Below are positions 1,728-54,873 of a DNA stretch of 64,000 nucleotides, one piece after another. The DNA lies in IMG/VR virus record IMGVR_UViG_3300032285_004008; one strand, given 5' to 3'. Source of the DNA: a virus. The translations under genes and the position numbers were made by a program. The notes under the pieces were generated by a model. That model saw only the letters and a list, made by a program, of their open reading frames with translations. It did not search any database and had not been told where the DNA came from. How positions within the stretch are numbered: the first letter of the stretch is position 1; every line of letters begins with the position of its first letter.

Positions 1728-3794
1728 TTAGTACTCTACAGCAGCGGCAGTAGCGCCACCAGTAGTGTCGCGCAGAGCTGCAGCTACACCGTTTACAGAG
1801 ATGGTTGAGGTGATCTTGAGTGACTCAATACCAACCTTAGCCAGACCTTCGAAGGTTTCTACGAACATCTTGTAGTCGTTAGTTCCAACTAGTGATGAGT
1901 CGCGGATAATACCAAGGTCAAGAGTACCACCGTCAAGGAACAGGAAGGTTCCTTCAGCGAATAGGTACCATGAGAAGGTGTCTGGGAACTCTAGAAGAGC
2001 GCCTGCACCCTGTGCACCAAAGTAGTTCTGGTCAGGAGATACAGTTAGCGAAACATTGCTGTTAGCTAGGTAGCCCTCGATCTCAGACTTTGCAAGTGCG
2101 ATAGTTCCGTCTCCAGGCATTGCCAGAGTCAAGTCTGCAGCCATAGCGTCAACTACCCAGTCAGGCACGATAGCCTTTAGCTGAGTTGCTGGGTCGATAC
2201 GGTGACGTGAACGGTAAGCAACTGCTGCACGGCGGATCTGAACTAGGAAGTCGCGACCGAAACCGATTAGTGAAGAAGTGGTAACAGCGGTTGAAGCAGT
2301 ACCAATCTTAGTTAGCAGGTTAACTTCTGCCTCACGAGCGTGCTGTACAAGAGCTAGCTCGTTGTGGCGAGCAATTAGCTCTGGGTAAGCACGAGTCATC
2401 AAGTTACCGAACTGTAGCTGTAGAGTTACAGCGTCAGTTGCTGCAGTAACTTCACCAGCTGCTGCTACGGTAAGAGATGTCTTGGTTGCGCTCTGTGGGT
2501 CAGCATCAACTGCAGCAGTCCATACACCAACAGCGTCAGCGTAGTCACCAGAAGCGAATGATGGTGGGGTTACGAAGCGGATACCACCACGGTCAGCCTG
2601 GAACTTAGGCAGCGCGTCACGAACTGGACGTGCAGTGCTTGAGCCAAGACCGAAGATGTCGTACTTAACTTCGTAAGGAGCAGCGTGACCACCAGAAGCA
2701 ACAAGAGCCTGAGACTCAGCTGCGAAAGCTGAGATCTTAGCTGAGTTAGCCTCTGCATCGGTAGTCAAGGTGCGTGCGTCGTCAAACTTAGTGGTGATCG
2801 AAGCAACAATGTGCTGCTCGCCATCTCCACCGTTTACACGACGTAGTGAGTGGATACGCTTCTCCATAGCCTGAGCTACTTCGTTCATATCGTTGATAGT
2901 GCTGCCTGCGGTGTAGCCAGGGATGTCAGCGCCAGCGGTAATTGCTACTACTGGCTCGGTAACCTGAACTACAGGCTGACGGTCAGCTGGAGCCTCGAAG
3001 GTTCCCTCTGCTGATGCGGTCACAGTTGCCTGCTCTTCCTGCTGAACTTCTTCAGCGATTGGTGATGATTCTAGAGTGGTTTCTTCAGCTGATGCCTCTG
3101 AGCCCTCTACTGCTTCTACTACTGCTTCTTCGGTAGCTACTTCTGCAGGTGCTGCAGGTGCTTCCTCAACAGTGCCATCAGCAGTGATGACTTCTTCGAC
3201 AACCTCTGATTCATTGGTTGATAGTTCTGATCCGGTTACCTGATCGGTTGATGCAACAGTCTCTTCTGAAGTAGTAGCCTCTTCAACTGCAACTTCTGCA
3301 GTTTCTTCTGGCTCAGCGGAAGCCTTCATAGGCTCCTTCTTCTCTTCTTCTGGAGTTTCCTTGGCTTCCTCTTCTGCAGTGCCTTCCTCTACCTGACCAT
3401 CGGTCTCGGCAGGGGTGTTGTCAGCAGCAGGGGTTTCTTCAGGGGCTTCTTCGGTAGGAGCAACTTCCTCTGCAGGAACTTCCTCTTCTACGATTGGCTT
3501 GTCTTCAGACATTGCCATTTCCTCTCCGGTCGCTTCCTGAGCGCCCTTAACACGTGCGGTGGCTTCTGCAGCCTGGGCAGCAAGTTCTTGAACTTGAGCC
3601 TCTCGGCGAGATAGCTCACCACGAACGATGTCAAGAGAGTCAGCAAGTGACGTCATAGCATCAACTGTCTCAGGAGTCGGGTCTTCACCCTCAACCATTT
3701 CGAACTGGCTGATAATATCTGCCTGAAGCTCTGCGAGTTGTTCGTCGCCAAGCTCAGAGATAGTATCTAGCTGAGTCTTAATCTGGTCGTACAC
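1728..3794 (-). CDS. Major capsid protein with N-terminal acidic scaffold-like region
   Basis: C-terminal ~330 aa has RPVRDALPKFQADRGG, LFAEGTFLFLDGGTLDLGIIRDS and NDYKMFVETFEG, typical of actinophage MCPs. GTG at 3794 follows an AGGAGG SD; the ORF track starts at 3827. Confidence 0.85.
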   Translation of the reverse strand: MYDQIKTQLDTISELGDEQLAELQADIISQFEMVEGEDPTPETVDAMTSLADSLDIVRGELSRREAQVQELAAQAAEATARVKGAQEATGEEMAMSEDKPIVEEEVPAEEVAPTEEAPEETPAADNTPAETDGQVEEGTAEEEAKETPEEEKKEPMKASAEPEETAEVAVEEATTSEETVASTDQVTGSELSTNESEVVEEVITADGTVEEAPAAPAEVATEEAVVEAVEGSEASAEETTLESSPIAEEVQQEEQATVTASAEGTFEAPADRQPVVQVTEPVVAITAGADIPGYTAGSTINDMNEVAQAMEKRIHSLRRVNGGDGEQHIVASITTKFDDARTLTTDAEANSAKISAFAAESQALVASGGHAAPYEVKYDIFGLGSSTARPVRDALPKFQADRGGIRFVTPPSFASGDYADAVGVWTAAVDADPQSATKTSLTVAAAGEVTAATDAVTLQLQFGNLMTRAYPELIARHNELALVQHAREAEVNLLTKIGTASTAVTTSSLIGFGRDFLVQIRRAAVAYRSRHRIDPATQLKAIVPDWVVDAMAADLTLAMPGDGTIALAKSEIEGYLANSNVSLTVSPDQNYFGAQGAGALLEFPDTFSWYLFAEGTFLFLDGGTLDLGIIRDSSLVGTNDYKMFVETFEGLAKVGIESLKITSTISVNGVAAALRDTTGGATAAAVEY

Positions 3795-3904
3795 TGTACC
3801 TCCTAGGCCAGTTATTTTGGTAGACACGGAATTGTGCCTATCGGTGAACAGTCAAGGCCGAGGGACTGACAACATTAAGTTGCAAGGCGCTCCACCTATT
3901 AGTA

Positions 3905-6009: not shown

Positions 6010-8979
6010 TTAAACCGCGCCAGCGCCGAGTTCGATGCAGCATTCTTGGAATGCAGGCTTAGCTACAATTGTAGCAGCCATTACACGTGCGTGATTAATG
6101 GTCATCTTCTTCTTACCAAGATCTTCACCACTGTCTTCGGCATTTTCCGGTGAGGCATCTTCTTTTGCTTCAAACTGATCAAGGTCTGCGGAAACTCCAC
6201 GAAGGAATCCTCCTCGAACCAGACGCTCTGCCTCACGGCCATAAGGACCGTTGTCAAATACACCTTCTGCATTACCAAGCCCGCCAGGGATTCGTTCTAG
6301 CTTGTCAATACGACCAACTACAACTGAACCATTGTGACCCTCGCCAGTCTGAATCTGCCACAGAAGAGGTAGAGGTAGTTCACGGATATCGATAGCATTA
6401 GCTTTAAACTTACGTCCATCGCCTGATTCCACGCCTTCTGGAACTAGCAGAGGAATAGTAAATCTAGAACCTGGAGCAATGTCGGTTTCTTCTCCGGCAC
6501 TTGCAACTAAGGCAAACTTAGAGCGAGCATCGTTAGCGCGAGCTGCTAGTGCGGCTGCTTCGATTACTGCTGTATTGAATTCTTCTACATTGCCAAAAGT
6601 ATTCTGCTTGTGACCAGGGTTAAATCGGCTTCCGGTATAAACACCAGTCGCTTCCTTGTGGCGCAGCTGGCAATAGCCCTTTGCCCTAAGTCCTAGGTAC
6701 TTAGATAGGTGACGAACGCAACGGGTCCAGTCTCCAGGAGTACCCCAACGAATCTTAAGAGCACCAGCCCCGTGAGTCCAATAACGACGAAGCTGTTCGG
6801 CATTACCTCTGTTACGATCTAGTCCACCAGCAGCAGTAATTGCACTAGCTAGTACGCAGTTAGGGACGTGTCTTCCATCCTTATCCTTAAAGCCAATCTG
6901 CTTGTAACCATCCCAGCAAGGATCTTCAGCAGAGTGGTCGGAAACGGTCGAGAAGTTACACATCTCTTCTTTACAGCCATCATCCTGAAGCATGTCTTCA
7001 ATTTCAGGCTCAGGAGTCCAACTCTCATCGTAAAGAGGGTCGTCAGCGTTCTTTTTGAATACGTCATCTAGAGGCATTAATAGATCGCGGTCAGTAACCT
7101 TTGTTGGCTCACCGATATTTTCGCCCCAAACTTCTTCCATGATGAATTCATCAGAAGAGAACTGCTTGTAACGGTCTTTGGCTGCGTGGGTAGCGGTGTA
7201 CATGCCAGTAGCTTCCTTGTGACGAAGCTGGCAGTAGCCTTTAGCGCGTGGTCCTAGATATTTAGCCAGGTGGCGAACACAGCGTGACCAGTCGCCAGGT
7301 TGGCCCCAACGAATCTTGGCAGCACCTTCTCCGTGTACCCAGTAGCGACGAAGTTTTTCTGCATTGCCGCGGTTGCGGTCTAATCCGCCGGCAGCAGAGA
7401 GGCTAGCAATTAGGGAAACTAGATTACGCTCCCAGAGAGGGGCAAGCGCGAGCGCACTAGCGGTAACGCCCTTTAGACCATCAGCCTGAGCAAGAACATC
7501 GTTTAGAAGCTCTGGAGTATCTAACTTAACTACTGGAGGAGGAGTTGCTGATTTTAGATCTGCAAGAATTTGATCATCTCGAACCCACTGCTTGTCTTGA
7601 CGACGGTAAGTGGTAGGAGCAGTAGTCTTATCGCTACTAGGAACAATAGCAATAACATCCATAACAGCCTGTAGGTCATCTGGAGAAACAATTGCTAGAT
7701 ATTTAGCTGGTACATCTGTATTATCTGGAGTTAATTCTTTAGTAGCAGCTGCGGCAGTTATATTCTGAAGTTTATTGTTCTTGCGAGTCTGAATAACATA
7801 GACAGTCCAAGAAGTTAGAGTATCTTTTAGCTCGCGAGCAGTTAGGGCTGGGATTGAAACACTGAGCTTAGCAATGTGAGATCTGTCCGAGTTTCTAGGT
7901 TCACCAAGAATTCCGGTTGTATCAATAGGGCTGATTTTCGGGACAAGCTTGGTATCTTCTGTATCTCCCGCAGCGGTCATAGCATATTCTACTAGTGACC
8001 AGTCAATATTCTCGATTGCTTCGGCTGCTAAAGCCGCCTCTTCTTCGTTAATATCGTCCAGGCTTACAGGGGTGTAGTCATTTTCGATGAAGCGAGCAGC
8101 AAGAATGACCGCAGATGCCGGGTCAATCATTACGTGAGTTTTTTCGCAGTTGTCGTAGACATCATCCAGGGCCTGGTCATACGAGTAAATGTCACCATCA
8201 ACATCGCCCATTGAGTCCCACTCGCCGCCATCCCATACAAATACTTCTGCATTGATGTCGATCATATATAGACGGTCAATTCCAGTTGCATCATGACGAA
8301 CACGTGCAATAAATTCTGGTCCCTGATTTTCGCTTAATTCCTGAGCATCTTGGAAACCATTTGCTGGCATACCGTAGTTCTCTAGCGCCTCTTCATATCC
8401 AGGAATACCGTAAGCACCGGCAGTTAAAGCCTTTTTATTTTCGCGCTCTACAATTGCAGATGCCCAGCGCTGCCCGGCATCTCCACCCCAGAGAGCCCAT
8501 GCAATACGACCGTTAGATGGGAAGTGATCTTCTCCAGGGTTAAATCCAGGAGCCTTTTTATCGACTTCATGACGAGGAAAATACTTGGCAATGTGTCGAA
8601 CCTTTTCGATGCCAATCTGGCCACCTCTTGCAAGGGTGCGAGCTGTATTTAATCCAACAGGAGTGCCGCCACGCTTTGCCTCATGACGCCACTTGAGCGC
8701 CTTCTTTGCTTCTGCCTGAACTCCACCAGGAATGGTATACATGCGATTACCATCACCAGAGGCTAGTACAGATTTAATATTAGGAATAATAAAGTGATCG
8801 TTTACTAGGCCAATAACTTCCGCAGATGGTACCTCAAAAGAGTCCTTAGAGAACTCTGATTTTAGGGTTGACAAAGAGCCAGAGTTGGTAATGAGGTTAA
8901 GTTCGGTGTCAACTATAACCGCTTTATCCCCATGAGAGAAAAGAGAAAAGTTACCCGATGTGCCTAGGTACTCGAACAT
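6010..8979 (-). CDS. Multi-module prohead (capsid maturation) protease polyprotein
   Basis: C-terminal EGVESGDGR...LPLPL...GH..SVVVGRI...LRGVSADLD...ATIVAKPAF protease-like domain. N-terminal modules GRIAWALWGG, two copies of LRRYW.HG.GA.KIRWG.PGDW.RC, and CWDGY...VPNCV. Confidence 0.65.
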   Translation of the reverse strand: MFEYLGTSGNFSLFSHGDKAVIVDTELNLITNSGSLSTLKSEFSKDSFEVPSAEVIGLVNDHFIIPNIKSVLASGDGNRMYTIPGGVQAEAKKALKWRHEAKRGGTPVGLNTARTLARGGQIGIEKVRHIAKYFPRHEVDKKAPGFNPGEDHFPSNGRIAWALWGGDAGQRWASAIVERENKKALTAGAYGIPGYEEALENYGMPANGFQDAQELSENQGPEFIARVRHDATGIDRLYMIDINAEVFVWDGGEWDSMGDVDGDIYSYDQALDDVYDNCEKTHVMIDPASAVILAARFIENDYTPVSLDDINEEEAALAAEAIENIDWSLVEYAMTAAGDTEDTKLVPKISPIDTTGILGEPRNSDRSHIAKLSVSIPALTARELKDTLTSWTVYVIQTRKNNKLQNITAAAATKELTPDNTDVPAKYLAIVSPDDLQAVMDVIAIVPSSDKTTAPTTYRRQDKQWVRDDQILADLKSATPPPVVKLDTPELLNDVLAQADGLKGVTASALALAPLWERNLVSLIASLSAAGGLDRNRGNAEKLRRYWVHGEGAAKIRWGQPGDWSRCVRHLAKYLGPRAKGYCQLRHKEATGMYTATHAAKDRYKQFSSDEFIMEEVWGENIGEPTKVTDRDLLMPLDDVFKKNADDPLYDESWTPEPEIEDMLQDDGCKEEMCNFSTVSDHSAEDPCWDGYKQIGFKDKDGRHVPNCVLASAITAAGGLDRNRGNAEQLRRYWTHGAGALKIRWGTPGDWTRCVRHLSKYLGLRAKGYCQLRHKEATGVYTGSRFNPGHKQNTFGNVEEFNTAVIEAAALAARANDARSKFALVASAGEETDIAPGSRFTIPLLVPEGVESGDGRKFKANAIDIRELPLPLLWQIQTGEGHNGSVVVGRIDKLERIPGGLGNAEGVFDNGPYGREAERLVRGGFLRGVSADLDQFEAKEDASPENAEDSGEDLGKKKMTINHARVMAATIVAKPAFQECCIELGAGAV

Positions 8980-9408: not shown

Positions 9409-9879
9409 TTATTCATTAGTGTTGTTGCTGTTTACCTGGGTTATAGCCCTATACATAAGCTCTAGTCTTGCCTCAGGTACATCATCAATTATAGATTGAA
9501 GATCTGCATCAGAAGCATTCTTAATATCTAGATAGCCTCTAACCTTTTTTCCAGATTTAGGATCTTCATAGGTATAGCCAATATTAGTCTTATAATTACG
9601 CTCTAACGGCGAGGATGCTCGCTCAGCTACTCGCTTTTCAACACGGAGTATAAACTCTGATAGGGCTGGAGACAGGTCATCTAGAGACTCGGCTTTTAGC
9701 TCTTTTTCAGCCGCCTCCTTTAGGAGACTGGCATTATATTTAGCAGTAGTCTCGTTGAAATAGACAGTATCAGCATACGGATCCCAGGTTTCTCCGTCAG
9801 AGCTATAGTAGTCTGCGTCTACAGAGTTGAATAGCGCATCGGCTACTCGCTGATTAGTTTGAAAAAATGCAGGATTCAT
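9409..9879 (-). CDS. Hypothetical protein (candidate immunity protein)
   Basis: Starts 1 nt after the stop of the effector ORF. Confidence 0.5.
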   Translation of the reverse strand: MNPAFFQTNQRVADALFNSVDADYYSSDGETWDPYADTVYFNETTAKYNASLLKEAAEKELKAESLDDLSPALSEFILRVEKRVAERASSPLERNYKTNIGYTYEDPKSGKKVRGYLDIKNASDADLQSIIDDVPEARLELMYRAITQVNSNNTNE

Positions 9880-9880
9880 A

Positions 9881-12823
9881 TTATGCGATATCTTTCTTTC
9901 TAACCTGAAGTATACCTCTATTTAGGACAACAACATAGCCATTTGCAAACTCTATTGCATCATAGCCAAGTAGGAAGGCCATATTACTTTGACTTGCACC
10001 GTTAGGGCTTTCGGTAGGTAGTGCGTGATATAGAGCGCTAATTTTACTTGATACCGTAGAATCAGTAACATCTAGCTCAGGATGCTCTTCATTAAGAACA
10101 ATTGACTTAAGTAGGTCCTTTATTTGAGCCTGCACATCATCGATGTCAGTATCACCGTTACCCTTAGTTGCTCCTATTCTCGATGCTCTACCTACTACAT
10201 AGATTTTTGCATTTGGATCAACTGCCACCTCTAGGGTTTCATTATCCCTGGAATTATTATTGCGTCCATAACTGTCCGATTCTGACTTACTTGTTGAGAA
10301 GTATATGCCATCACCATACATGGTTCCACCCTTATCAGAATAGTAAGGGTCTTTAGTTGTCGAAAAGTCTCTCTGTAGCTCTCTGGCACTCTTGTATTTC
10401 CCATTAACGTCTAGTCCACCAACACCGCGGAAGATTGTCTTCCAGCCAGGAGTGAAGTCATCAACTATCTGAGGGGTATTCTCTCTAACTCCGTTTAATC
10501 TAGCTAATTTGTGGGCAGAAGCGGCACCAAGGATACCATGAGACCTAGATCCATACCCTCTTGACGATGGCGTATATAGGGATGCATCTGATTCCGGAGA
10601 TGTGCCACTATTATTTTCATGGCGTATTTTATCGATAAAACCTAGAAGATTAGATTTAATTCCAGTAACTGCTTGACGCCATAGAGTGCTTACTTTAGCT
10701 TTAGCAATGCCGCGAGATTCAAGCATTGCCACGAACCAGTCCGGAGCTTCACCGGTCAGAACATATTTAGCACCTAGCTCAGCGAAGTTTTCACTATCTC
10801 CAGCCGCACCGCGAATACTTACTGCAGGGATGGTTTGGTTGCTAGCCGCATGAGCTTTTTCTTGAACGCTAGCAGCGTCAGCCGAGTCACCTAGACCGAA
10901 CTTGTTAAGAATATAAGATCTACGGTTCTTAAGAGTTGTTTTTAGCTGCTGAGCAGCAGTAGGGTCAGTGATAATGCTGTCAACCAATGAATCAATATCT
11001 GACTCTTTTAGGCTTTGAACTCTCTTGGCGCTGTCAATCTTTTGCTGCTGGGTCATCTTTCCAAAGATAGACACTGCAGTAGGGTTTTGATGTCCAGATG
11101 TTAGAGTATCTAGCTCTAGTACTGAATCTCCAAAAGCTGTACCCTTAGCCCCGCCCTGAGCACGGAAGAGAAGTGACCCTCCTGGATCGATGCGAATAGG
11201 GTCGCCATTAGCATCGCTAACTATGTTGTCATTTAGAACAGAGTCCCAGTTGGCTAGGAATGCGTCAGCCGCAAAGCCCTCTTGAACCTTTTTTAGGTAA
11301 GAAGGGTCGCTAAGTTTTGAGTTAAAGTCGGTTTTAACTCCAGGAATCATTTCTGAATATGTTGCCGATCTACCCCCAACTGTGCCAGATACAATATTTG
11401 TAGATCCAATTCCCATTGCTTGATAGAGGGCTGAAGCTAGACGCTCGTTTTCTCCATGCAAAACGGTCTTAGGAAACTTAGCATATATCTGCTTACCAGT
11501 GGCTGGATCTTCAAAGGTTCCTCCATCATTAGATCCCATCTGACGCCCAACTTGCTTCCAGTTGGAAAGATCTTCTGAAGCCTTTTGACTGTCTACAATC
11601 TTTTGCACATCGGCGCTTACGGATGTATCTACAGCAGGTGCCTTTGTCCCATTAAGCTCTTTATTGTAGAACTTGCGCATATCGTCAGAGAGTGACTTGG
11701 CTGTTCCGGAACCGTAGATTTCATCAGCAATCTGGTGAAGTACCTCGTGAGCAACAAAATGCTTCATAGCACTAGTGTTGTCTGTAATATCAGTAGACCA
11801 GTAGCCAGGGTTTGCCTTGGCTGCTTCTACCTGACCATGTACGCGGTCTACATAAACTCTTACAGCGTTAGCCCCATCAAAAGTAAATGCAACAGTGTTG
11901 TCATTTATCCCGCTTAGATTTTCTGGGACAGAACTCTTATTATCTAATAGGTGAAGGTTTACGGTTCCTCTGTACAGGCCACCAGTCCTCACGGCTTTGA
12001 GACCCGCAACAGCTGCTGCAAAGTCTTCTGGTGTTGCTTTAGGGTTTAGCTTTCCAGAGTCATCTACAGTCATGTGGACATAGATACTGTTTCCAGTATC
12101 AGCATCAGTTACCTTAATGTTAGAGAACTTTTGATCTGTACTCTTAAGCTTAAGATTCTTTATTACTTCCCTTTGAGCTGTATATTTAGCTTCGGCAGGT
12201 CGGATATTAAAGTTACCAGTAAGAGCCTTATAGTTCTCGTCGAATGCCTCGGTTGCATCTGCTTTAGCACCTTTAATATCCCAGCTTCCGGGAACTCCAG
12301 AGTATAGATTATCAATACGAGGCATAGCACTTCTATATGCAGTGATCGTATCGTTAAAATCTGTGTCCAGAGTCTTTGCTTGAGTGCCTTGACGCGTCTT
12401 ATTGCGGAAGCGAGCGTTAATCATCGCTACCTCTTTAGGGCCGAGGAATCCATCAGACTTATAGTCGTATGGAGTATATGCCTCGGAATCTTTGAAGCTG
12501 CTCATGTGAGCATTAAGTAGATCAACTATTGCATCTTTGTATTCAGCAGTATCGCCAGCTTGACGAGCCTTACGTACCCTTTGAACTAAGCTATCTAGTT
12601 CCTTATCGTTATGCTCGGCAGGAATAGTGCCATAGATGTAATCTTCAAGATTACCTAGCGAGGCCCAGCTAGGGTCGAAGTTAGTTCTAGTTGCAGGTTT
12701 AGATGAACTATCTGAGGATGTCTTAGCCGATCTGGTAGGCCTTAGCCCGGATGTGTCAAACTTTCGAGTAGATGAGACCTTAGGGGCTGACGGCCCTGAG
12801 CTAGGACCCTCAGCCCTATTTAT
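9881..12823 (-). CDS. Polyvalent effector extension (zincin metallopeptidase + atypical kinase + ADP-ribosyltransferase), probably reached by -1 frameshift
   Basis: Peptidase motifs HEVLH...ENFAE; kinase motifs GSNDGG..YAK..ENE..DAFLANWD..DN..RIDPGG; ART motifs IFRG..YGDGIYFS..GYDAI..YVVVLNR. The frame is open 106 codons upstream of the ATG at 12505 with no ATG/GTG/TTG. Confidence 0.7.
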   Translation of the reverse strand: MNRAEGPSSGPSAPKVSSTRKFDTSGLRPTRSAKTSSDSSSKPATRTNFDPSWASLGNLEDYIYGTIPAEHNDKELDSLVQRVRKARQAGDTAEYKDAIVDLLNAHMSSFKDSEAYTPYDYKSDGFLGPKEVAMINARFRNKTRQGTQAKTLDTDFNDTITAYRSAMPRIDNLYSGVPGSWDIKGAKADATEAFDENYKALTGNFNIRPAEAKYTAQREVIKNLKLKSTDQKFSNIKVTDADTGNSIYVHMTVDDSGKLNPKATPEDFAAAVAGLKAVRTGGLYRGTVNLHLLDNKSSVPENLSGINDNTVAFTFDGANAVRVYVDRVHGQVEAAKANPGYWSTDITDNTSAMKHFVAHEVLHQIADEIYGSGTAKSLSDDMRKFYNKELNGTKAPAVDTSVSADVQKIVDSQKASEDLSNWKQVGRQMGSNDGGTFEDPATGKQIYAKFPKTVLHGENERLASALYQAMGIGSTNIVSGTVGGRSATYSEMIPGVKTDFNSKLSDPSYLKKVQEGFAADAFLANWDSVLNDNIVSDANGDPIRIDPGGSLLFRAQGGAKGTAFGDSVLELDTLTSGHQNPTAVSIFGKMTQQQKIDSAKRVQSLKESDIDSLVDSIITDPTAAQQLKTTLKNRRSYILNKFGLGDSADAASVQEKAHAASNQTIPAVSIRGAAGDSENFAELGAKYVLTGEAPDWFVAMLESRGIAKAKVSTLWRQAVTGIKSNLLGFIDKIRHENNSGTSPESDASLYTPSSRGYGSRSHGILGAASAHKLARLNGVRENTPQIVDDFTPGWKTIFRGVGGLDVNGKYKSARELQRDFSTTKDPYYSDKGGTMYGDGIYFSTSKSESDSYGRNNNSRDNETLEVAVDPNAKIYVVGRASRIGATKGNGDTDIDDVQAQIKDLLKSIVLNEEHPELDVTDSTVSSKISALYHALPTESPNGASQSNMAFLLGYDAIEFANGYVVVLNRGILQVRKKDIA

Positions 12824-12829
12824 TTTGGG
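12781..12829 (-). promoter_or_regulatory. -1 programmed ribosomal frameshift signal
   Basis: Slippery heptamer C CCA AAA (12829-12823) directly before the TAA. Hairpin TAGGGCTGA-G-GGTCCT-AGCTC-AGGGCC-G-TCAGCCCCTA follows at 12818-12781. Confidence 0.75.
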
Positions 12830-15813
12830 CCGCGGTTCTCGCTCTTCTCTACAATCTCTACCTGCTCATCGCCATTCTCATCGATGTAGAACACAGCTAA
12901 GCCAGGCTCTCCACCATCCTGAGCAGGAACTTCTTGAGTTTCTACTACAACACCCTTGTAGTCACCGTTCTCGTCATACCAGCTATCGTTTGGCTGAAGC
13001 TTGGTTACGTTACCTTCCTTAGGTGCTTCAGGTGTAGCATCCTTGCCGGTTTCGTCGGTGGTGTTTATTGCACTATCAGGAGCCGCGGCATCAGGAGTAG
13101 GGCTAGTAGAGTCATCGCTAATAACCTGCCCGTTGGAGTTGGTTTGCTGGCCATTACTGTTAATGTACGGAGCACCAGCATTAGGGTTAGCGACATCATC
13201 AGAGTTATCTGTAGAGTCTGGAGCAGAAGGTGGGTTGGCGCTAGATGGGGCGGTTCTACCCTCTTTTGCTGCCTTATCAGACTCACGCTTTTTATTAAAT
13301 GCATCAAGTGCAGGGCCGAGCATTGCCTTACGTAGTGCTAGTTTATTGTCTAGCTTAACATTTGCAGAGTAGTCAGTCAGATCCGAGTCTCCAAACTCTG
13401 AATCAGGCCCAGCTGGGAATGAGTTTCTAGTTTGTAGATTATTTATAACTGTTCCATCAGCAAATTGAATACTGGCTGTATCGTGATATCCGCCATTCTT
13501 TCCACTAGCTGGCTGGAACCCAACAATTCTACCAACCGAGTATTCATCGTGGTTCGGGAAGTAGAAGACTTTGTCTCCTACCTTAGCAACGGTATTTCCA
13601 TCACCCATAATGTATGGGGTTCTATTGATGTCACGTAGGTCAACATTGTTGCTGGCCATATACTTGTCGAGCAAGTTAGCATAAGTCTGGTAACTCTTAG
13701 CCTTCTTGACACCCTTAAAGTGTGAAATAGTCTCTTCGCGTAAGGTATCAACTAGCAACTTACGTGATTCAGGACTATCTGGCATTCTTCCAAGAAGCTG
13801 AGTAATACGGAACTTCATTCCGTTCCAGTCCTTGTCCTCCATAGACTTCCAGAAAGGAGATACCTGACCACGCATAACGTTTCCGAACTGATAGCGTGCC
13901 TCGCCATTTGGACCAACACCAGTCTGAGCCATACTCATGTTGTACTTAGGGTCAGTTCCATCAAGGAATTTCTTGATGTTTTCTTTTGGAGTTACTAGTC
14001 GGTATCCATATAAATCAGAACCCTTACGGTAGTACTTGAGTCGCTGATCTAGATTTTTGTTAGGACCAAAATAGGTAGAAAGCTCGCGAGTAAGTTTCTT
14101 ACCAGGAATATCCTCGCCGAGAAGCTGATCGCGCATACGAAGAATTCCGTTAGTCTTACTAAAAATTCCGGCAAAAGAATCTTTGTAGTCAGCAGCCTGG
14201 AATTCCTTTACTTCACCTGTAGTTTTATCGGTAAACTTATAGTGCTGAATGAACTGGTTTCCATAGGTTCTTGATACACCTAGTTCGAACTTGTATTCTT
14301 TACCATCAACGTCTGTGTAGTCGCGACGCTCTAGGATAATACGGTCATTGTCTCCCTGGACCTTAGCATCAGGGAAATTATCAAGTAGCCCGTTAATGCC
14401 CGCATTAGGGTCCTGAATGATCTTCTTAGGATTATTAGGATCGCGAAGAGGCTGACCATTCTCATCCATGAGAGGATCTAGCTTTAGATTACGTAGGTCT
14501 TCTTCAGACTTTCCATTAGTGTTTAGGGTAATGTCGCTGCCGTCATCCATACGCTTTTTAGCAAGAGCAATTTCTGAAGCAGTCTTCTTGCTAGTCTTTG
14601 GAGTTGCTTTAGCTGCAGCAGGTGCCTTCTTAGGTGCAACAATGGTAGGGGCAGCCTTAGGTGTAGTCTTCTGACCATAGTGAGCTTTAACCTGATCAAG
14701 AACAGTCTTTGCTTCGTCAGAGGATACATCTTCGGCATTATCAAGTTTAGATACAATATCGTCATAGCTCTTCTTCAAAGCTGGATCAATATTTGCATCA
14801 TTGCTGATCTTGTCAGCTAGGTTGTCGAGTTCGTCAACCTGCTTTGAGGTGGCAGGCTTAAATGCAGGAACCGGCTTAGCCTTTGCTGCTTTCTTAGGTG
14901 TTGCCGGTGCTGCTGTCTTCTTAGCCACGGCGGTACCGATCTTATCGTTCGGACCTGCAGAGTAACTAATCGTCTTACGATCAGGGGTTGTAATTATAAA
15001 ATCGTATTTGCCATTCTGAACACGTATGTCCGTAATTCGACCAACAGGTTTATTTTTATTATCTACTACCTCGTCGTCCTTTTTAAGATCTTTAGCTTCT
15101 TTGTCGATGACGTCAAACCCAGCTGGACCATTAGCTGCTGAAATTTGAATTGCCTTAATAGCATCATCAAGGTTGGCACCATCACCATAAGCGGCATCAT
15201 TCCAAAGCTTAGATGCAGCATCATCTACAGATGCTGGTTCAACTTTAGTTTCAGGGGTGGTTGGAATTTGATCCATACCCTTTTCGGCACCCGCAGGAGC
15301 ATTTGCTAGAGGGTGGTTTGCGCGAGCTTCATCAATGATCTTCTGCTGCTTCTTATCTGGAACGATAGATGCCATACGCTCGTCTTCAGCAGTTGCTGGA
15401 CGTACATTTTTATCATTTAGTTGGATAGTTTCAAGCGGAGCGATGTTGTCACCAATGTGACCACCCTGCTTGGTCTCGATTCCCTGACGCTTGAGTTCTT
15501 CACTAGAGATTCCAGCCTTATATTGGCGAACCAAGTGAGAAGGAACAGAGACAACGTTTTTTGTTCCATCTTTTTCACGAACTAGGAAGTTACCATTTCC
15601 AGGATTATTTAGATCTGGACCGATAAAGATACCATGCAGGGTCTTTTTAATGCCATCTTTAATGATGTCAAAGAGTGACCCGCGGCCCATCTCCATCCAC
15701 TTACCGTGATCATCGCGAAGCTGGTGCTCCCAGAAACCTTTGTTAGCTCCAGACCCGGTGCCCGGAATTGATGCAGCAGTAAGGGCTTGGTTTAGTTTGT
15801 CTAGGTAAGACAT
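12820..15813 (-). CDS. Large head-associated/internal virion protein
   Basis: 997 aa between portal and protease (the MuF-like position). N-terminal LTAAS and HQLRDDHGKW motifs; K/A/P-rich linkers. Confidence 0.55.
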   Translation of the reverse strand: MSYLDKLNQALTAASIPGTGSGANKGFWEHQLRDDHGKWMEMGRGSLFDIIKDGIKKTLHGIFIGPDLNNPGNGNFLVREKDGTKNVVSVPSHLVRQYKAGISSEELKRQGIETKQGGHIGDNIAPLETIQLNDKNVRPATAEDERMASIVPDKKQQKIIDEARANHPLANAPAGAEKGMDQIPTTPETKVEPASVDDAASKLWNDAAYGDGANLDDAIKAIQISAANGPAGFDVIDKEAKDLKKDDEVVDNKNKPVGRITDIRVQNGKYDFIITTPDRKTISYSAGPNDKIGTAVAKKTAAPATPKKAAKAKPVPAFKPATSKQVDELDNLADKISNDANIDPALKKSYDDIVSKLDNAEDVSSDEAKTVLDQVKAHYGQKTTPKAAPTIVAPKKAPAAAKATPKTSKKTASEIALAKKRMDDGSDITLNTNGKSEEDLRNLKLDPLMDENGQPLRDPNNPKKIIQDPNAGINGLLDNFPDAKVQGDNDRIILERRDYTDVDGKEYKFELGVSRTYGNQFIQHYKFTDKTTGEVKEFQAADYKDSFAGIFSKTNGILRMRDQLLGEDIPGKKLTRELSTYFGPNKNLDQRLKYYRKGSDLYGYRLVTPKENIKKFLDGTDPKYNMSMAQTGVGPNGEARYQFGNVMRGQVSPFWKSMEDKDWNGMKFRITQLLGRMPDSPESRKLLVDTLREETISHFKGVKKAKSYQTYANLLDKYMASNNVDLRDINRTPYIMGDGNTVAKVGDKVFYFPNHDEYSVGRIVGFQPASGKNGGYHDTASIQFADGTVINNLQTRNSFPAGPDSEFGDSDLTDYSANVKLDNKLALRKAMLGPALDAFNKKRESDKAAKEGRTAPSSANPPSAPDSTDNSDDVANPNAGAPYINSNGQQTNSNGQVISDDSTSPTPDAAAPDSAINTTDETGKDATPEAPKEGNVTKLQPNDSWYDENGDYKGVVVETQEVPAQDGGEPGLAVFYIDENGDEQVEIVEKSENRGPK

Positions 15814-15962: not shown

Positions 15963-16415
15963 TTAGGCAGACAGAGATGAAGTGAGCTGCCAGTTCCAGA
16001 ACTGGTGCTTGTCAATACGTTCTGCAATAAAGTTAGCAATACCCTGCTCGTTAGCATCGGTTGCTACTGCAAATGTCTCGACACATAGGTCTAGAAGGAT
16101 CTGATTTACACGAACAAGAGAAGCAAGCATTGCATCGATGTTTCCATCCTCGATGCGATCCTCGTTAACTAGGGTCATCTCCTGGAAGTCATTCAGAAGG
16201 TATGGGGCATCGAAGCCGAGCTTACGAATGTTCTCGGAAGTAGGGTCAATAGCACTGTCGTAGTCGTTGTAGATCTCTTCGAAGAAGAAGTGGAACTCCT
16301 TGAAGTCCCTACCCTTTACGTTCCAGTGATATCCGTGTGCAATAAATTTTGCAGTTACTAGAGTGCTTACTAGGGCAGCTAGTTTTTCTGCTACTGGGAT
16401 TGAAGTCTGATTCAT
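15963..16415 (-). CDS. dps: Dps/ferritin-like DNA protection protein
   Basis: HGYHWNVKGRDF..FH..FEE.Y......D...E.IR.LG Dps signature. Confidence 0.9.
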   Translation of the reverse strand: MNQTSIPVAEKLAALVSTLVTAKFIAHGYHWNVKGRDFKEFHFFFEEIYNDYDSAIDPTSENIRKLGFDAPYLLNDFQEMTLVNEDRIEDGNIDAMLASLVRVNQILLDLCVETFAVATDANEQGIANFIAERIDKHQFWNWQLTSSLSA

Positions 16416-16422
16416 AGTAATA

Positions 16423-18150
16423 TTATACCTTTGGTTCTGCTAGGGGAGGAGCGGGGGTTGTGGCTGGAGCTTCAGCCGGAGCTGCTGGCTGTCCATTTTG
16501 GATCATCTGATCTACATCCTCAGGGATTGGTGCTCCTGATTCAGCCTGCGATACTTCACGAGTTAGATTGATAACATCTGGAGCAACTGCAGCAAGTAGG
16601 GACTCGGTTAGCTGAGGGGTGATTGCACCCTTCTCCAGAATTAGACGAAGGGCTACTTCTGAAGGAGTAGGGGCATCCTGATCCGAGAACCCATGAGCAC
16701 GACGCCATGTGTCGAAGCTAACAGCCATCTTCTCGAACCCAGAATCAGCATCGGTTGCTCGGTCATTACGGGTAGCAACCTGACTTGGGTCATACCAAAT
16801 ATGGATTCGATCAACGTCGGCTTCGGTATAGCCAATTGACTTTAGGTATGGGCGTAGGTAGACAACAGTTAGAGCATCTGCAATAAGAAGCATCAGAGGC
16901 TCGATGTGCGCCTTGTAGAGACCTTCATCAATCTGAAGCGCGTTCGAGTACTTAACGTTTGCTAGGCCTGTCACAACGTCCTTAGGAACGTCTAGTCCCT
17001 GCATGATGCGATCCAGTACTCGGTCAGCACGAGCAACGAGTGAGTCATCGAATGAACGCTCGAACTTGAACTGCTTGATCTTGTCACCAAGTTCTGCAGG
17101 ACCACGAATAAGAAGCGGAACAACTGCAGATGCAGAATCCTCGTCCTTAATCGGAGTGGTCATTGCATCGATGAGTTGATCTTCGAAGTCATCAGCAGCT
17201 TCTTCTGTGTTGTACTGCTCGTTGTACTCGCCGTTCTCGTCATATGGATAGTCAGGGTCTGGTGCAGCGGCAACAGAAAGACCATCTGGCAAATAAAGAG
17301 CACCAGCGTTGAGGCGAGAGCGTGCGGTTGCACGGAAAGTACGGTTAAGTAGAAGTAGTTCAGCACAAAGGTCAAGCAGACCTCGTAGTGAAGAGTCAGA
17401 CTCTAGAGAGTAGCGAGGGTGCGCCTTCCAGATGCGACCAATGAAAGCATCCTTTGGAAGAAGAAGAACGTTTTTACTTCCAGTAGCTGAAGAGCCTCCG
17501 CCAACATCGCGGATCGGGTTAATTACGTACTGACCCTTGGCATTAATCTGTAGCTCGTCAACCGAACGAATATCCCATGACTCAGGGAGCTGAGAGCCTA
17601 GACGTTCTGGAATCTGGACTAGGTAGCATTCACCAGTCACCTGAAGATTTAGAGCAGCATCCTTAAGAAGACCTGCCTGGCCACCATAGGCTGAATCAAG
17701 TCTGGCCAAAGCACGCTCAGCGGCCGCGGCCAGGTCTTTGTCAACAGTCTTTGACTTGTTTAGTGGTACTGGAGCCTCGGCTGGATCATCTACAACAGCA
17801 GCGTAAATGCGGATGCGAGATACCACAGCTGCAACAAGATTGAATGCATACTTAATTTCTCCAATTGCATCGTAATACTCCCATGCTTCGGTCTGCCAAG
17901 AAGATGCGGCTGATTGGCGGCGGGACTTAAAGCGTTCAGCCTCTCCCTTATCGTCCATACGAATTTGGGCAGCGGCAGCTGTTAGGGGTCTAGGAGTGTT
18001 GTATGCGGCTGGCTCAGCGTAAACTAGGCCAAATGCATCTACAGAGATTCCAGGAGCAATCGGAGTTGCTGAGCGTGGCGCTGTCGCACGAAGGCCAGGT
18101 GCTCGAAAGCGCTGATCTTCATTTTTTGGGGTGCGTTTAAAAATTCCCAA
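16423..18150 (-). CDS. Portal protein
   Basis: 575 aa after the terminase; WQTEAWEYYDAIGE, RIW..HPR, SR...AG and GLDVP motifs of actinophage portals. Confidence 0.8.
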   Translation of the reverse strand: MGIFKRTPKNEDQRFRAPGLRATAPRSATPIAPGISVDAFGLVYAEPAAYNTPRPLTAAAAQIRMDDKGEAERFKSRRQSAASSWQTEAWEYYDAIGEIKYAFNLVAAVVSRIRIYAAVVDDPAEAPVPLNKSKTVDKDLAAAAERALARLDSAYGGQAGLLKDAALNLQVTGECYLVQIPERLGSQLPESWDIRSVDELQINAKGQYVINPIRDVGGGSSATGSKNVLLLPKDAFIGRIWKAHPRYSLESDSSLRGLLDLCAELLLLNRTFRATARSRLNAGALYLPDGLSVAAAPDPDYPYDENGEYNEQYNTEEAADDFEDQLIDAMTTPIKDEDSASAVVPLLIRGPAELGDKIKQFKFERSFDDSLVARADRVLDRIMQGLDVPKDVVTGLANVKYSNALQIDEGLYKAHIEPLMLLIADALTVVYLRPYLKSIGYTEADVDRIHIWYDPSQVATRNDRATDADSGFEKMAVSFDTWRRAHGFSDQDAPTPSEVALRLILEKGAITPQLTESLLAAVAPDVINLTREVSQAESGAPIPEDVDQMIQNGQPAAPAEAPATTPAPPLAEPKV

Positions 18151-18463: not shown

Positions 18464-18823
18464 TTAGTCTTTCAGAGATGTAATTGTCTTGTAGGCATTC
18501 CAGCTGCGAAGGCGAGATCCGCATCCGCAATTAGTGTCCTTCTTGAATGCTAGCATCTTTCCACTCTTTGTGACAATCCTGTGATCAGTCTTTGTACCCT
18601 GACCTGGTAGGTACTCGTCATAACCCTCTCGGAATATGATCTGAGCACCATCAGGACTGTCTTGTGCAACTAGAACCATCTCATCGGTGACAATGACGCG
18701 AGTGGTTGCCAAATAGTGAGCATCTTTGGTCGCTGGAGATGAGTTTAGGGCTGTCACATCATCAGTAAAGCCTGCCGGAACTACCGCCAGGTGTGCTGGA
18801 AAAATATCTGCATGTATTTTCAT
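18464..18823 (-). CDS. Hypothetical protein with CGCGS motif
   Basis: Overlaps the terL stop (ATGA coupling). Confidence 0.6.
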   Translation of the reverse strand: MKIHADIFPAHLAVVPAGFTDDVTALNSSPATKDAHYLATTRVIVTDEMVLVAQDSPDGAQIIFREGYDEYLPGQGTKTDHRIVTKSGKMLAFKKDTNCGCGSRLRSWNAYKTITSLKD

Positions 18824-20220
18824 CGTACTCGGAATGTACTTCCGCCTCTTCCTGTCTGTGGAAGACCAATTTTACGGTCTGACATGCTCTTTGCACGGAT
18901 TTTACCGCCCGAAAAGCCCGCTGGAGGCTTAATTAGCAGTGCTGTAAGGGCGTGAACCAGAGCATCGATGCGGTCAGGAGATTTACCCTCTCCAGGCACC
19001 CAGGAGATCATTTGAGACTCTAAATCAGCTAAATAACCAATGTGATGGACTCTTTGTTGCTCGTAAGCTAGTGAGATTGGCTCTGCTCGGAGCTGTTTTC
19101 CTTGTTTTGAGTGGACTTCAAGTACTTTGATTGTTGGATCGATGGTATTGATCGCATTGCGTACAAGTGCACCACCCTGATTAACTTCTGCAACAACGGG
19201 ACAACCCCACTTTCTAGCCATTTTAACAACTTGATTGGCCCAAACGTCAGGCGAACCGTGAACTGAAGCATCTTCGAGCACCCAAGCATTGCGCTTATAT
19301 AGGTCATGTTCGGCAGAAGACGCTACTACAACGATACCGCACTCGTCACGGGGGTTCTCGGCAACAGATGGGTCAACTCCGATACAGCGTAGAGGCGTTG
19401 AAAGAGGGTAGAAGCTCTCACGACCTGCTTCGATCATCTCCTCAGTCCACATTGCCCCCTCCATGGCCTCAAGCATTTCACCATAGAGCTCCTGGCGAGC
19501 AAGGGAAGTCCCCTCATATACACCAAGCATCGTGTCAAGATATGAACCAGATAGGTTACCTGCGTTATCCATAGTAGAACCACGAGTAATGGCTACACGA
19601 CCGGTTTTTGCTTCTTCAATTAGCTTGTAAAGCAGCGGGGTTCTTTTTGGAGTTGTAGTGACCAAGATTTTTGGCTTTGACCCGAGACGAGTACCAACAC
19701 GTAAGTTGTCAAACGCGGTCATACCTGCAGCATCCGGAGTCTGACGCCAGGCTGCAATCTCATCTCCCCATGCGTGCGTAAACTGAGGACCACGAAGCGA
19801 GTCAGGCTCATCGGCGGTGAAGAGGGTGGCGGTATTTCCGTTAGGCCAAGTTAGACGACGCTTTGAAGGCTCGTAGAGTGGCTTTTCGGATGGCGGGGTG
19901 ACATTCATGATGCCAGACTCACCTTCAACGATAACGTCACGCACGTCAGCTGCAGTACGAGCAACAAGTGCAAAACGTCGCTGACCCTCAGTTGTATATT
20001 TCGCTTGCTCGCGAACCCATTCAGATGCAAGTCGAGTCTTACCAAAACCACGTCCAGCAAGTACAAGCCAGATGTTCCAATCGCCCTCGGGAGCTTGCTG
20101 TTCTGGACGTCCCCAAACAGACCAATCCCAAAGTAAAGTTTCTGGGTCCATACCCTCTAAGGCAAGGGCTCGTTCATCTTCCGGCAGAGCCGCAAGGATT
20201 TCCATAATACTTTTACCCAT
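18820..20220 (-). CDS. terL: Terminase large subunit
   Basis: Walker A AGRGFGKT, Walker B AWGDE, TTTP coupling motif, nuclease GVDP...SPDRIDA. Confidence 0.95.
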   Translation of the reverse strand: MGKSIMEILAALPEDERALALEGMDPETLLWDWSVWGRPEQQAPEGDWNIWLVLAGRGFGKTRLASEWVREQAKYTTEGQRRFALVARTAADVRDVIVEGESGIMNVTPPSEKPLYEPSKRRLTWPNGNTATLFTADEPDSLRGPQFTHAWGDEIAAWRQTPDAAGMTAFDNLRVGTRLGSKPKILVTTTPKRTPLLYKLIEEAKTGRVAITRGSTMDNAGNLSGSYLDTMLGVYEGTSLARQELYGEMLEAMEGAMWTEEMIEAGRESFYPLSTPLRCIGVDPSVAENPRDECGIVVVASSAEHDLYKRNAWVLEDASVHGSPDVWANQVVKMARKWGCPVVAEVNQGGALVRNAINTIDPTIKVLEVHSKQGKQLRAEPISLAYEQQRVHHIGYLADLESQMISWVPGEGKSPDRIDALVHALTALLIKPPAGFSGGKIRAKSMSDRKIGLPQTGRGGSTFRVR

Positions 20221-54661: not shown

Positions 54662-54707
54662 TGAACTGCCTCTCTTATCTCTATTCATAGTTGCGTCTAC
54701 TATATAG

Positions 54708-54781
54708 CGAACCCAACCGGACTTGAACCGGCGACCTCCGCCGTGACAGGGCGGCGCTCTAACCAACTGAGCTATGAGTCC
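54708..54781 (-). tRNA. tRNA-Asp(GTC)
   Basis: GGACTCA-TAGCTCAGTTGGTTAGAGC-G-CCGCC-CTGTCAC-GGCGG-AGGTC-GCCGG-TTCAAGT-CCGGT-TGGGTTC-G; no encoded CCA. Confidence 0.9.
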
Positions 54782-54800
54782 ATCTACTTAAAGTATACAG

Positions 54801-54873
54801 CCCCCTATGAGAGATTCGAACTCCCGGCCTTACGGGTAGAAACCGTCTGCGCTATCCACTGCGCCAATAGGGG
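54801..54873 (-). tRNA. tRNA-Arg(TCT)
   Basis: CCCCTAT-TGGCGCAGTGGATAGCGC-A-GACGG-TTTCTAC-CCGTA...GTTCGAATC...ATAGGGG-G. Confidence 0.85.

Follow-up and report, generated by a model that had tools for sequence, protein, structure and literature searches.

Programmed ribosomal frameshifts described in phages concern tail chaperones and short extensions of capsid or tail proteins, the −1 frameshift of the A2 capsid being among those listed (PMC5009743), and a slippery site reading CCCAAAA has been reported for the gene of the major head protein in A2-like Lactobacillus phages (PMC6950654). Here, we analyze a 64,000-nucleotide (nt) stretch of viral DNA, IMG/VR virus record IMGVR_UViG_3300032285_004008 ("the window", whose numbering is used for all positions), in which a −1 frameshift very probably joins a 997-amino acid (aa) protein encoded in the head module to about 980 codons that follow it. 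The upstream open reading frame (ORF), designated ORF1 (ORF-997, translation P0001), the −1-frame ORF, the slippery heptamer and the hairpin behind it are all located on the (−) strand; the cargo translated from the −1 frame is designated P0002, and the 874-aa ORF annotated within it P0004. As in the capsid extensions of the Lactobacillus A2 major head protein, T3/T7 gene 10A/10B and Listeria A118/A500, the heptamer is found in the last codons and a short and an extended form are predicted; with the A2-like phages, even the CCCAAAA sequence is shared. The known extensions are, however, short (ca. 100 aa or less), mostly Ig-like and located on the shell protein, whereas here, enzyme domains of ca. 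460-1000 aa, swapped between relatives, would be appended to a protein that is not the capsid shell.

The frameshift of the lambda G/G-T tail chaperone (Xu, Hendrix and Duda 2004, as cited in PMC7302621 and PMC10885494) is, as far as these citing papers relate it, a parallel in having a site conserved despite flanking divergence, a fixed short-to-long ratio, and lineages that use separate or fused genes instead. The locus described here differs from it in being head-proximal rather than in the tail module, in the gene and the signal used and in a trans-frame part that is ca. 10-fold larger and predicted to be catalytic.

The cargo itself recalls MuF polymorphic toxins, reportedly treated by Jamet in 2017, and phage polyvalent proteins, reportedly treated by Iyer in the same year. 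These, too, are large proteins encoded after the portal, with exchangeable C-terminal ADP-ribosyltransferase (ART), zincin-type peptidase, nuclease and helicase domains, and are thought to be packaged and delivered with DNA. The carrier in our case is, however, not MuF (there is no PF04233 match), and its cargo would be attached by recoding, while theirs is attached by direct fusion. The Alt protein of T4, a packaged and injected ADP-ribosyltransferase, is a stand-alone gene product with a capsid-targeting sequence and involves no frameshift; what it has in common with the locus is the idea of an ART carried inside the head and injected along with the genome, and no sequence relationship was detected. 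MuF-VIP2 ART proteins of Microbacterium phages are direct fusions (PMC7302621), and ARTs have been noted in freshwater phages with no mention of recoding (PMC6802176). In the PRFect paper, MuF-like/VIP2 pairs appear among the frameshift predictions that lack annotation, and fusions made by frameshifting are raised as a general possibility (PMC10885494); this is the only prior hint of recoding-attached MuF-like cargo that we found in the literature. We found no published description of a frameshift that attaches an exchangeable multi-enzyme cargo of ca. 50-110 kDa to a structural-module protein.

ORF1 ends with the codons GGC (12831-12829), CCA (12828-12826), AAA (12825-12823) and TAA (12822-12820). 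The original prediction, made from the window alone, had proposed that the heptamer C CCA AAA at 12829-12823 follows the X XXY YYZ rule, that the −1 frame is free of stops down to 9881 and lacks a start codon for 106 codons, and that the fusion measures 997 + 980 = 1977 aa. Each of these points holds. The heptamer is in phase with ORF1. Read from 12829, the −1 frame contains 982 open codons and ends with a stop at 9883-9881; its first ATG, GTG or TTG is codon 108, i.e., the annotated ATG at 12505, and the 106 codons before it have no start. Traced back from the heptamer, the −1 frame runs into a stop after 12 codons, and this stretch holds no start codon. The predicted junction reads ...ENRGPK followed by INRAEGPSSGPSAPKV..., and AEGPSSGPSAPK is an example of a tryptic peptide predicted from the −1 frame within 12506-12822. 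Since at least one copy of CCCAAAATAR was found in 22 of 100 shuffles of the 64 kb, a single occurrence of this string is not improbable by itself, and the significance of the site comes from its conservation and the architecture around it.

Relatives were searched for by protein similarity alone, with the motif unused, and 12 were found (L002, L005, L009-L011, L013-L015 and L017-L020); they come from different runs and studies. In addition, L006-L008 carry the same gene as L005, and L012 carries the same protein as L011. Identity to the window in the cargo is 37-85% for L002, L005 and L009-L015, while L017-L020 are more distant (31-40% identity in ORF1). In all 12 motif-independent relatives, the ORF1 homologue ends with an in-phase C CCA AAA, and UAA or UAG directly follows; in L020, where the sequence is GCU UAA, the stop is displaced by one codon, and the hairpin still begins 6 nt after the heptamer. 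The heptamer and hairpin are shared by relatives with variable downstream domains, a comparison that the original prediction had put forward. Every relative has 457-1004 open codons in the −1 frame, and the other frames are stop-rich. The codon preceding CCA is GGC, AAC, AGC, TCC or GTC, which stand for four amino acids (Gly, Asn, Ser and Val); its third position is always C, in keeping with the X of X XXY YYZ.

Further loci (L004, L021 and L023-L031 from IMG/VR; L051, L082 and L083 from metagenomes) were added by pattern scans, and all of them have the same architecture of two long ORFs. A scan of metagenomes with a 22-nt degenerate junction pattern retrieved 80 matches. The 77 matches without homology, which serve as a negative control, are flanked by short ORFs on both sides, the largest pair being 249 and 5 codons. 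The three homologous matches have 905-1143 frame-0 codons upstream and 729, 842 and at least 440 (contig end) −1-frame codons downstream.

In many relatives (L005, L010 and L017-L020), the conserved GGN GAR (Gly-Glu) codons of the ...G-E-x-R-x-P-K ending of ORF1 homologues yield GGAG-, GAGG- or GGGG-like strings that precede the heptamer by ca. 10-17 nt; the string is weak in the window (GAGAAC, within 12830-12850). Such a string could act as an internal Shine-Dalgarno stimulator of the dnaX type. The window also contains two adjacent phage tRNA genes, tRNA-Asp(GTC) and tRNA-Arg(TCT), at 54707-54873 on the (−) strand; the pair includes neither a tRNA-Lys nor a tRNA-Pro that would bear on the slippery site.

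A hairpin of 13 base pairs (7, a 1x1 internal loop and 6 more) begins 6 nt after the heptamer. The original prediction had placed it at 12818-12781 and 4-6 nt downstream; the hairpin is real, but these limits were off by 2-3 nt and the spacing is exactly 6 nt. Its minimum free energy is −26.3 kcal/mol (z of −3.4 to −4.0 against dinucleotide shuffles), and no other 48-nt window within ±1.5 kb is more stable, which also holds for the corresponding hairpins in nearly all of the 24 loci tested. Across all relatives, its distance from the heptamer is 4-6 nt. Within the window's clade, the outer stem does not vary (GGGCUG(A)/(U)CAGCCC), and the inner stems differ yet pair: GGCCCU/AGGGCC in L009, GGACC/GGUCC in L010, GGGUCCUGGGG/CCCCAGGGUCU in L002 and CCGUCG/CGACGG in L004. 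Further inner-stem versions are found in the clades with UAG, and those of L018, L025 and L028 also differ but remain paired. An RNAalifold consensus of 17 sequences contains six invariant outer pairs (17 of 17) and four inner pairs with changes on both sides that keep the pairing; the inner stem, which holds this covariation, encodes variable residues. On the coding strand, the hairpin is not followed by a U-tract, and no promoter- or terminator-like site was found in the gap between the two annotated ORFs. On the (+) strand, positions 12796-12813, part of the hairpin and then CCCTATTTAT, were flagged as terminator-like, and no (+)-strand gene converges there; this call probably arises from the frameshift hairpin together with the A-rich heptamer.

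The segment between the heptamer and the annotated ATG, formerly taken as noncoding, comprises a Pro/Ser-rich linker, a conserved R-x-F-D-x-S-x-L-R motif and then the first zincin helices. Its −1-frame translation aligns across all relatives, with this motif, a D-x-S-W motif and a helical segment conserved. Against the five closest relatives, at a synonymous divergence of 0.40-0.57, the ratio of nonsynonymous to synonymous substitution rates (Nei-Gojobori) is 0.13-0.20. Judged by these values, the segment is under purifying selection in the −1 frame, which bears out the earlier claim that the 315-nt "gap" is coding. The R-x-F-D-x-S-x-L-R motif is located 20-30 residues after the junction (ca. 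12740-12765; P0002 residues 21-29) and is conserved although the surrounding linker varies; in-frame fusions P0035, P0061 and P0091 have D-P-D-F-D-L-D after an internal R-G-P-[KRN]. The post-junction motif may be a cleavage or docking site.

The two halves are also found joined in single ORFs. ORF1 contains three small SH3/KOW/Tudor-like beta-barrels, at residues 233-297, 733-806 and 936-996. A full HMMER scan with ORF1 yielded 85 representative homologues, 34 of which end with the same C-terminal barrel, mostly at ...G-E-x-R-x-P-K and in some cases with one or two extra residues. P0033, P0034, P0036 and P0037 (1390-1984 aa) are ORF1 homologues (E 1e-27 to 1e-33) that carry the zincin cargo in frame (E 5e-20 to 5e-34 with the cargo hidden Markov model (HMM)); less complete continuous ORFs with both halves are P0035, P0061, P0069 and P0091. 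In P0033, P0034, P0036, P0037 and P0061, the ORF1 barrel is internal, ends with ...R-[AG]-P-K and is followed by a linker, P0061 reading ...ETRGPK-IEING... As far as sequences tell, the two parts have been linked during evolution by fusion in some lineages and by a frameshift signal in others, with their order and the joining residue unchanged.

Comparison with isolate phages at the DNA level gave one match of 180 nt, to Actinomycetia phage DSL-LC01, and tblastn of ORF1 against 50,697 phage records gave none. DSL-LC01 is a lake metagenome-assembled genome (PMC10611076). Its single 3289-aa ORF (L016 4003-13872; OQ999401.1 52800-62669) occupies the same slot, between portal-proximal genes and a capsid maturation protease, and contains the kinase-like domain (49.6% identity over 226 aa); no relation of this ORF to ORF1 was detectable by tblastn.

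A programmed −1 ribosomal frameshift, as originally proposed, is thus strongly supported by comparative evidence and extends to a phage family. Most ribosomes translating ORF1 would stop at UAA and release the 997-aa protein. A fraction would pause at the hairpin while tRNA-Pro occupies CCA in the P site and tRNA-Lys occupies AAA in the A site. The two tRNAs would slip back in tandem by one base, onto CCC AAA, and these ribosomes would translate a further 980 codons; the hairpin and possibly the adjacent stop would stimulate slippage. In the 1977-aa product, ORF1 would be followed by the Pro/Ser-rich linker, then by a zincin-like metallopeptidase into which a kinase-like domain is inserted and finally by an ART-PolyVal-like domain. 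In the family, the site would be a fixed junction behind which the appended cargo is swapped. That ribosomes slip here, the rate at which they do so and the processing of the fusion by the zincin are what we infer.

The alternatives to such a frameshift have to be weighed against the same evidence. One can imagine two separate genes, the second of which (ORF2) is translated alone, from ATG 12505, by termination-reinitiation or from a non-canonical AUA overlapping the stop, with the hairpin coupling or regulating the two. Gene callers do call ORF2 separately, with starts that give 826-970 aa for the −1-frame homologues; these lengths are arbitrary since there is no conserved start. Met-12505 is replaced by Leu or Lys in five of nine close relatives (L013, L009, L010, L002 and L004), and its ATG is not preceded by a Shine-Dalgarno-like sequence, while GGA/GGAG-type motifs precede many neighboring genes; moreover, the 106 codons before it are themselves under purifying selection. 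In the relatives, a stop closes the −1 frame 9-44 codons ahead of the heptamer, the intervening codons include no ATG, GTG or TTG, and the canonical starts downstream are at non-homologous positions, with none in 140 codons in L010 and none in 131 in L030. L020, which lacks an AUA after the heptamer, keeps the heptamer, the 6-nt spacing and the hairpin. Reinitiation also leaves unexplained why the third-position C and CCA AAA are strictly retained while neighboring synonymous sites have diverged by 40-78%, and why distant relatives join both halves in frame at the same residue. Separate genes are therefore improbable as the whole explanation, although internal initiation at ATG 12505 could contribute an additional product. 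Several observations do weigh against the frameshift. In most clades, an AUA directly follows the heptamer in the −1 frame, and rare termination-reinitiation at this non-canonical codon may still take place. The invariant outer pairs of the hairpin also encode the conserved R-A and S-A-P in the −1 frame, so the invariance of the outer stem is not assignable to RNA alone. Hairpins are weaker in distant relatives (−14 to −16 kcal/mol in L021, −16 to −22 in L019 and ca. −20 in L017). Finally, and as a weak point, a single-ORF fusion from a close relative was not found among proteins of at least 1718 aa.

Transcriptional slippage, in which RNA polymerase adds or drops an A in the A-run, would have a similar outcome at the protein level, and there is a run of four A at the site. 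Known bacterial and phage sites of this kind are homopolymer runs about twice as long or longer. Four A is short by this measure, and a covarying hairpin at a set spacing, together with the X XXY YYZ phase and its conserved C, are features of slippage by the ribosome and not by the polymerase; we regard slippage of the polymerase as very improbable. A 1-nt assembly error in one 1977-codon gene, or a recent pseudogene, is hardly credible at all. It is true that one added base at the junction gives a single ORF and that single-ORF fusions occur in distant relatives. Yet the same frame arrangement, with a stop after the heptamer, recurs in about two dozen independently assembled contigs from at least 12 samples, with protein divergence of up to 65%, and both halves are under purifying selection; recurrence in independent assemblies excludes an indel artefact.

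The cargo was modeled from 10 sequences (mean pLDDT of 72). In the model, residues 411-660 clearly have a kinase-like bilobal fold. The best match over 416-660 is to CtkA (Z 15.0, root-mean-square deviation (rmsd) 3.2, 210 residues aligned), well above unrelated rows; CotH (Z 13.1), PI4KII-alpha (Z 12.4) and HipA (Z 11.6) were also matched, and Foldseek gave E 3e-5 to PI3K/CtkA. K450, E461, D521, N526, D528, N534 and D547 are invariant in the 10 sequences; by motif order alone, Lys450, Glu461, Asp528/Asn534 and Asp547 would sit at the positions expected for kinase motifs. In contrast to CtkA, CotH, PI4K-II and HipA, whose fold it shares at 9-15% identity, the domain is inserted inside a zincin. 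Felix-O1-like and Gordonia phages have homologues of the domain, often within proteins that bear an ADP-ribosyltransferase annotation.

The zincin assignment is based on motifs and folds. H360, E361, H364 and E679-x-F-A-E683 are invariant in the 10-sequence alignment, and these columns do not vary among cargo variants and in-frame fusions either. The best Pfam match, to the ATLF family (PF07737), reached 20.7 bits, below the cut-off of 27.4, and was found in 3 of 16 members. The fold, discontinuous over 223-716, gave middling matches to PPEP-3 (Z 8.3, rmsd 4.6, 177 residues aligned) and lugdulysin (Z 8.3, rmsd 4.1, 139 aligned); lethal factor gave Z 10.0 but an rmsd of 10.9.

For the C-terminal ART region, PARP (PF00644) was matched in 3 of 11 members, with 22.7 bits and thus short of its cut-off of 26.7, and ART-PolyVal (PF18760) remained below its 31.2-bit cut-off (E 0.05-0.1). 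At the level of leads, ESM Atlas gave a feature score of 0.93 with 179-183 features shared with ART-PolyVal clusters, and structural similarity (TM) of 0.48-0.53 to an ART-PolyVal cluster and 0.63 to a cluster of Phage_Mu_F minor capsid C-terminal domains. R800 and the Y-G-D-G-x-Y motif (G838, G840 and Y842) are invariant, and E959 is nearly so. A profile search of this region against PDB sequences found no match, and hhalign against P0094, a relative with ADPrib_exo_Tox, found no usable one. Of the "triple-enzyme" cargo initially proposed, the kinase-like fold is thus clear, the zincin is suggested by invariant motifs and folds with Z of ca. 8, and the ART remains a sub-threshold assignment.

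Cargo length varies with domain content. The 457-aa cargo of L017 and L020 consists of linker and zincin, and the 686-aa cargo of L019 has an extra N-terminal region before the zincin. Cargo of 704-729 aa (L018, L023-L031 and L051) combines zincin with an ART-like domain and no kinase, the kinase insert being missing from both the ca. 710-aa and the 457-aa variants. The 842-aa cargo of L082, with L021 of the same type, has an RNase_T exonuclease (PF00929, 47 bits) and zincin, and in the window's clade (974-1004 aa), the zincin carries the kinase insert and is followed by the ART-like domain. By its sequences, the cargo is modular: the zincin is always present, while RNase_T, the kinase insert or the ART domain is optional.

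The carrier half, ORF1, was modeled from 38 sequences (pLDDT 78). It has a conserved N-terminal domain (ca. 16-180) and a confidently folded core (ca. 410-730) with no recognized match, in addition to its three barrels, the first of which matches domain I of EF-P (Z 9.2, rmsd 1.6, 60 residues aligned). ORF1 matches no Pfam family at E ≤ 0.1, Phage_Mu_F (PF04233) included, and no PHROG at E ≤ 0.01. Searches with the model in VIA and BFVD returned no virion protein, only small beta-barrel and helical matches, with the core 410-730 barely covered, and there was no usable match to the N-terminal domain in ESM Atlas. Elsewhere, this N-terminal domain heads proteins of 2.3-2.7 thousand aa that include UvrD-type helicase domains, as well as one of 1583 aa that combines ADPrib_exo_Tox with the kinase-like domain. 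ORF1 looks like a carrier module of phage polyvalent proteins. The "MuF-position head protein" of the original prediction is right as to position, near the portal with one small gene between, but not as to MuF, given the absence of a MuF, Pfam or PHROG match; by gene order and synteny, and not by homology, ORF1 would be a head protein.

Whether the cargo travels in the virion is a question on which we are evenly divided. In that case, both forms would be virion-internal and loaded next to the portal, and the enzymes would be delivered into the host with DNA. The virion association of ORF1 is positional only, which counts against this part of the proposal. The frameshift is also compatible with ORF1 and the fusion being intracellular, as an assembly or takeover factor in which slippage sets the ratio of a scaffold-like to an enzyme-bearing form. 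ORF1 has no homology to a known virion protein, with only SH3/KOW-like barrels recognized, and the UvrD-type helicases in relatives of its N-terminal domain and the exonuclease of one cargo type could act in the cell. This possibility is nevertheless doubtful in view of the strict synteny from the portal to the major capsid protein, the single ORF of DSL-LC01 in the same slot, the closest structural similarity of the ART-like domain being to Phage_Mu_F C-terminal domains, and matches of the cargo model in BFVD that include proteins annotated as portal and head-morphogenesis domain.

Coordinates of the features discussed are collected in Table 1. On the (−) strand, the order of the head module is large terminase, portal, Dps-like gene, ORF1, the −1-frame ORF, two small ORFs, genes for 989-aa and 707-aa proteins with prohead-protease/portal-associated PHROG domains, and the major capsid protein. 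The succession of portal, Dps-like gene, ORF1/cargo, prohead protease and major capsid protein is strictly conserved.

Table 1. Positions of the frameshift site, the two coding halves with their predicted domains and head-module genes in the window
Feature	Position	Strand	Remarks
ORF1 (P0001), zero-frame product	12820-15813	−	997 codons, ends ...E-N-R-G-P-K
Slippery heptamer C CCA AAA	12829-12823	−	X XXY YYZ, in phase with ORF1
Zero-frame stop UAA	12822-12820	−	Abuts the heptamer on its 3′ side; other clades have UAG, and in L020 the stop is displaced by one codon (GCU UAA)
Spacer UAAAUA	12822-12817	−	6 nt, heptamer to hairpin
Predicted stimulatory hairpin	12816-12784	−	Outer stem GGGCUGA/UCAGCCC, 1x1 internal loop, inner stem GGUCCU/AGGGCC, loop AGCUC
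−1-frame extension	12826-12506	−	Formerly taken as noncoding gap; without start codon
Remainder of −1-frame ORF (P0004)	12505-9881	−	874 aa annotated
Zincin-like domain, N-terminal part (P0002 ca. 110-390)	12499-11657	−	Includes invariant HEVLH, 11749-11735
Protein-kinase-like domain (P0002 ca. 411-660)	11596-10847	−	Inserted between HExxH and the third-ligand motif
ENFAE motif (P0002 679-683)	10792-10778	−	Candidate third zinc-ligand Glu; E-x-FAE invariant across the family
C-terminal ART-PolyVal/PARP-like domain (P0002 ca. 785-981)	10474-9884	−	Sub-threshold or lead-level
Large terminase	18820-20220	−	Head module
Portal	16423-18150	−	Head module
Dps/ferritin-like gene	15963-16415	−	PF00210, E 1.3e-12; between portal and ORF1
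Major capsid protein	1728-3827	−	Head module

The Dps/ferritin-like gene directly follows the portal in every relative whose contig reaches this point (L005 289-741, L010 1-498, L017 2676-3134, L018 2070-2525, L019 501-953 and L020 3923-4405) and is an unusual constant member of the head module. On the other side, a 156-aa ORF (9409-9879, (−) strand) with no Pfam or PHROG match begins 1 nt after the cargo stop; ORFs of 155-158 aa follow every kinase + ART cargo of the window's clade (L002, L005, L009, L010 and L013-L015), while the ca. 710-aa, 686-aa and 457-aa cargo types are followed by ORFs of 60-99 aa instead. Further downstream, the 989-aa and 707-aa ORFs overlap by 34 nt (6010-6043, (−) strand) and jointly span phrog_859 (positions 346-533 and then 540-759). 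A second frameshift at this overlap was considered and rejected: a slippery heptamer is lacking, and near 5995 there is a GTG with a properly spaced AGGAG ahead of it. This suggests that the 707-aa protein starts ca. 16 codons after the ATG call by ordinary coupled initiation, which is likelier than a frameshift.

Tentatively, the heptamer, stop, hairpin and Pro/Ser linker may constitute a docking junction for polymorphic cargo, by which freshwater actinophage-like viruses load few armed copies per capsid. The portal-proximal internal protein would then be abundant, exonuclease, kinase and ART modules would be swapped behind it, the efficiency of frameshifting would set the number of armed copies, and the zincin would free the cargo after ejection. 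If the frameshift is confirmed, it would add a major class to phage recoding and provide a simple stoichiometric mechanism to dose potentially self-toxic effectors. It would also mean that automated annotation systematically miscalls such loci, giving a truncated "ORF2", arbitrary starts and a false intergenic gap, and that more of them can be searched for with a signature on the scale of 22 nt. Since lineages with the frameshift and lineages with the in-frame fusion coexist for the same two halves, the family would offer a natural experiment on recoding versus fusion.

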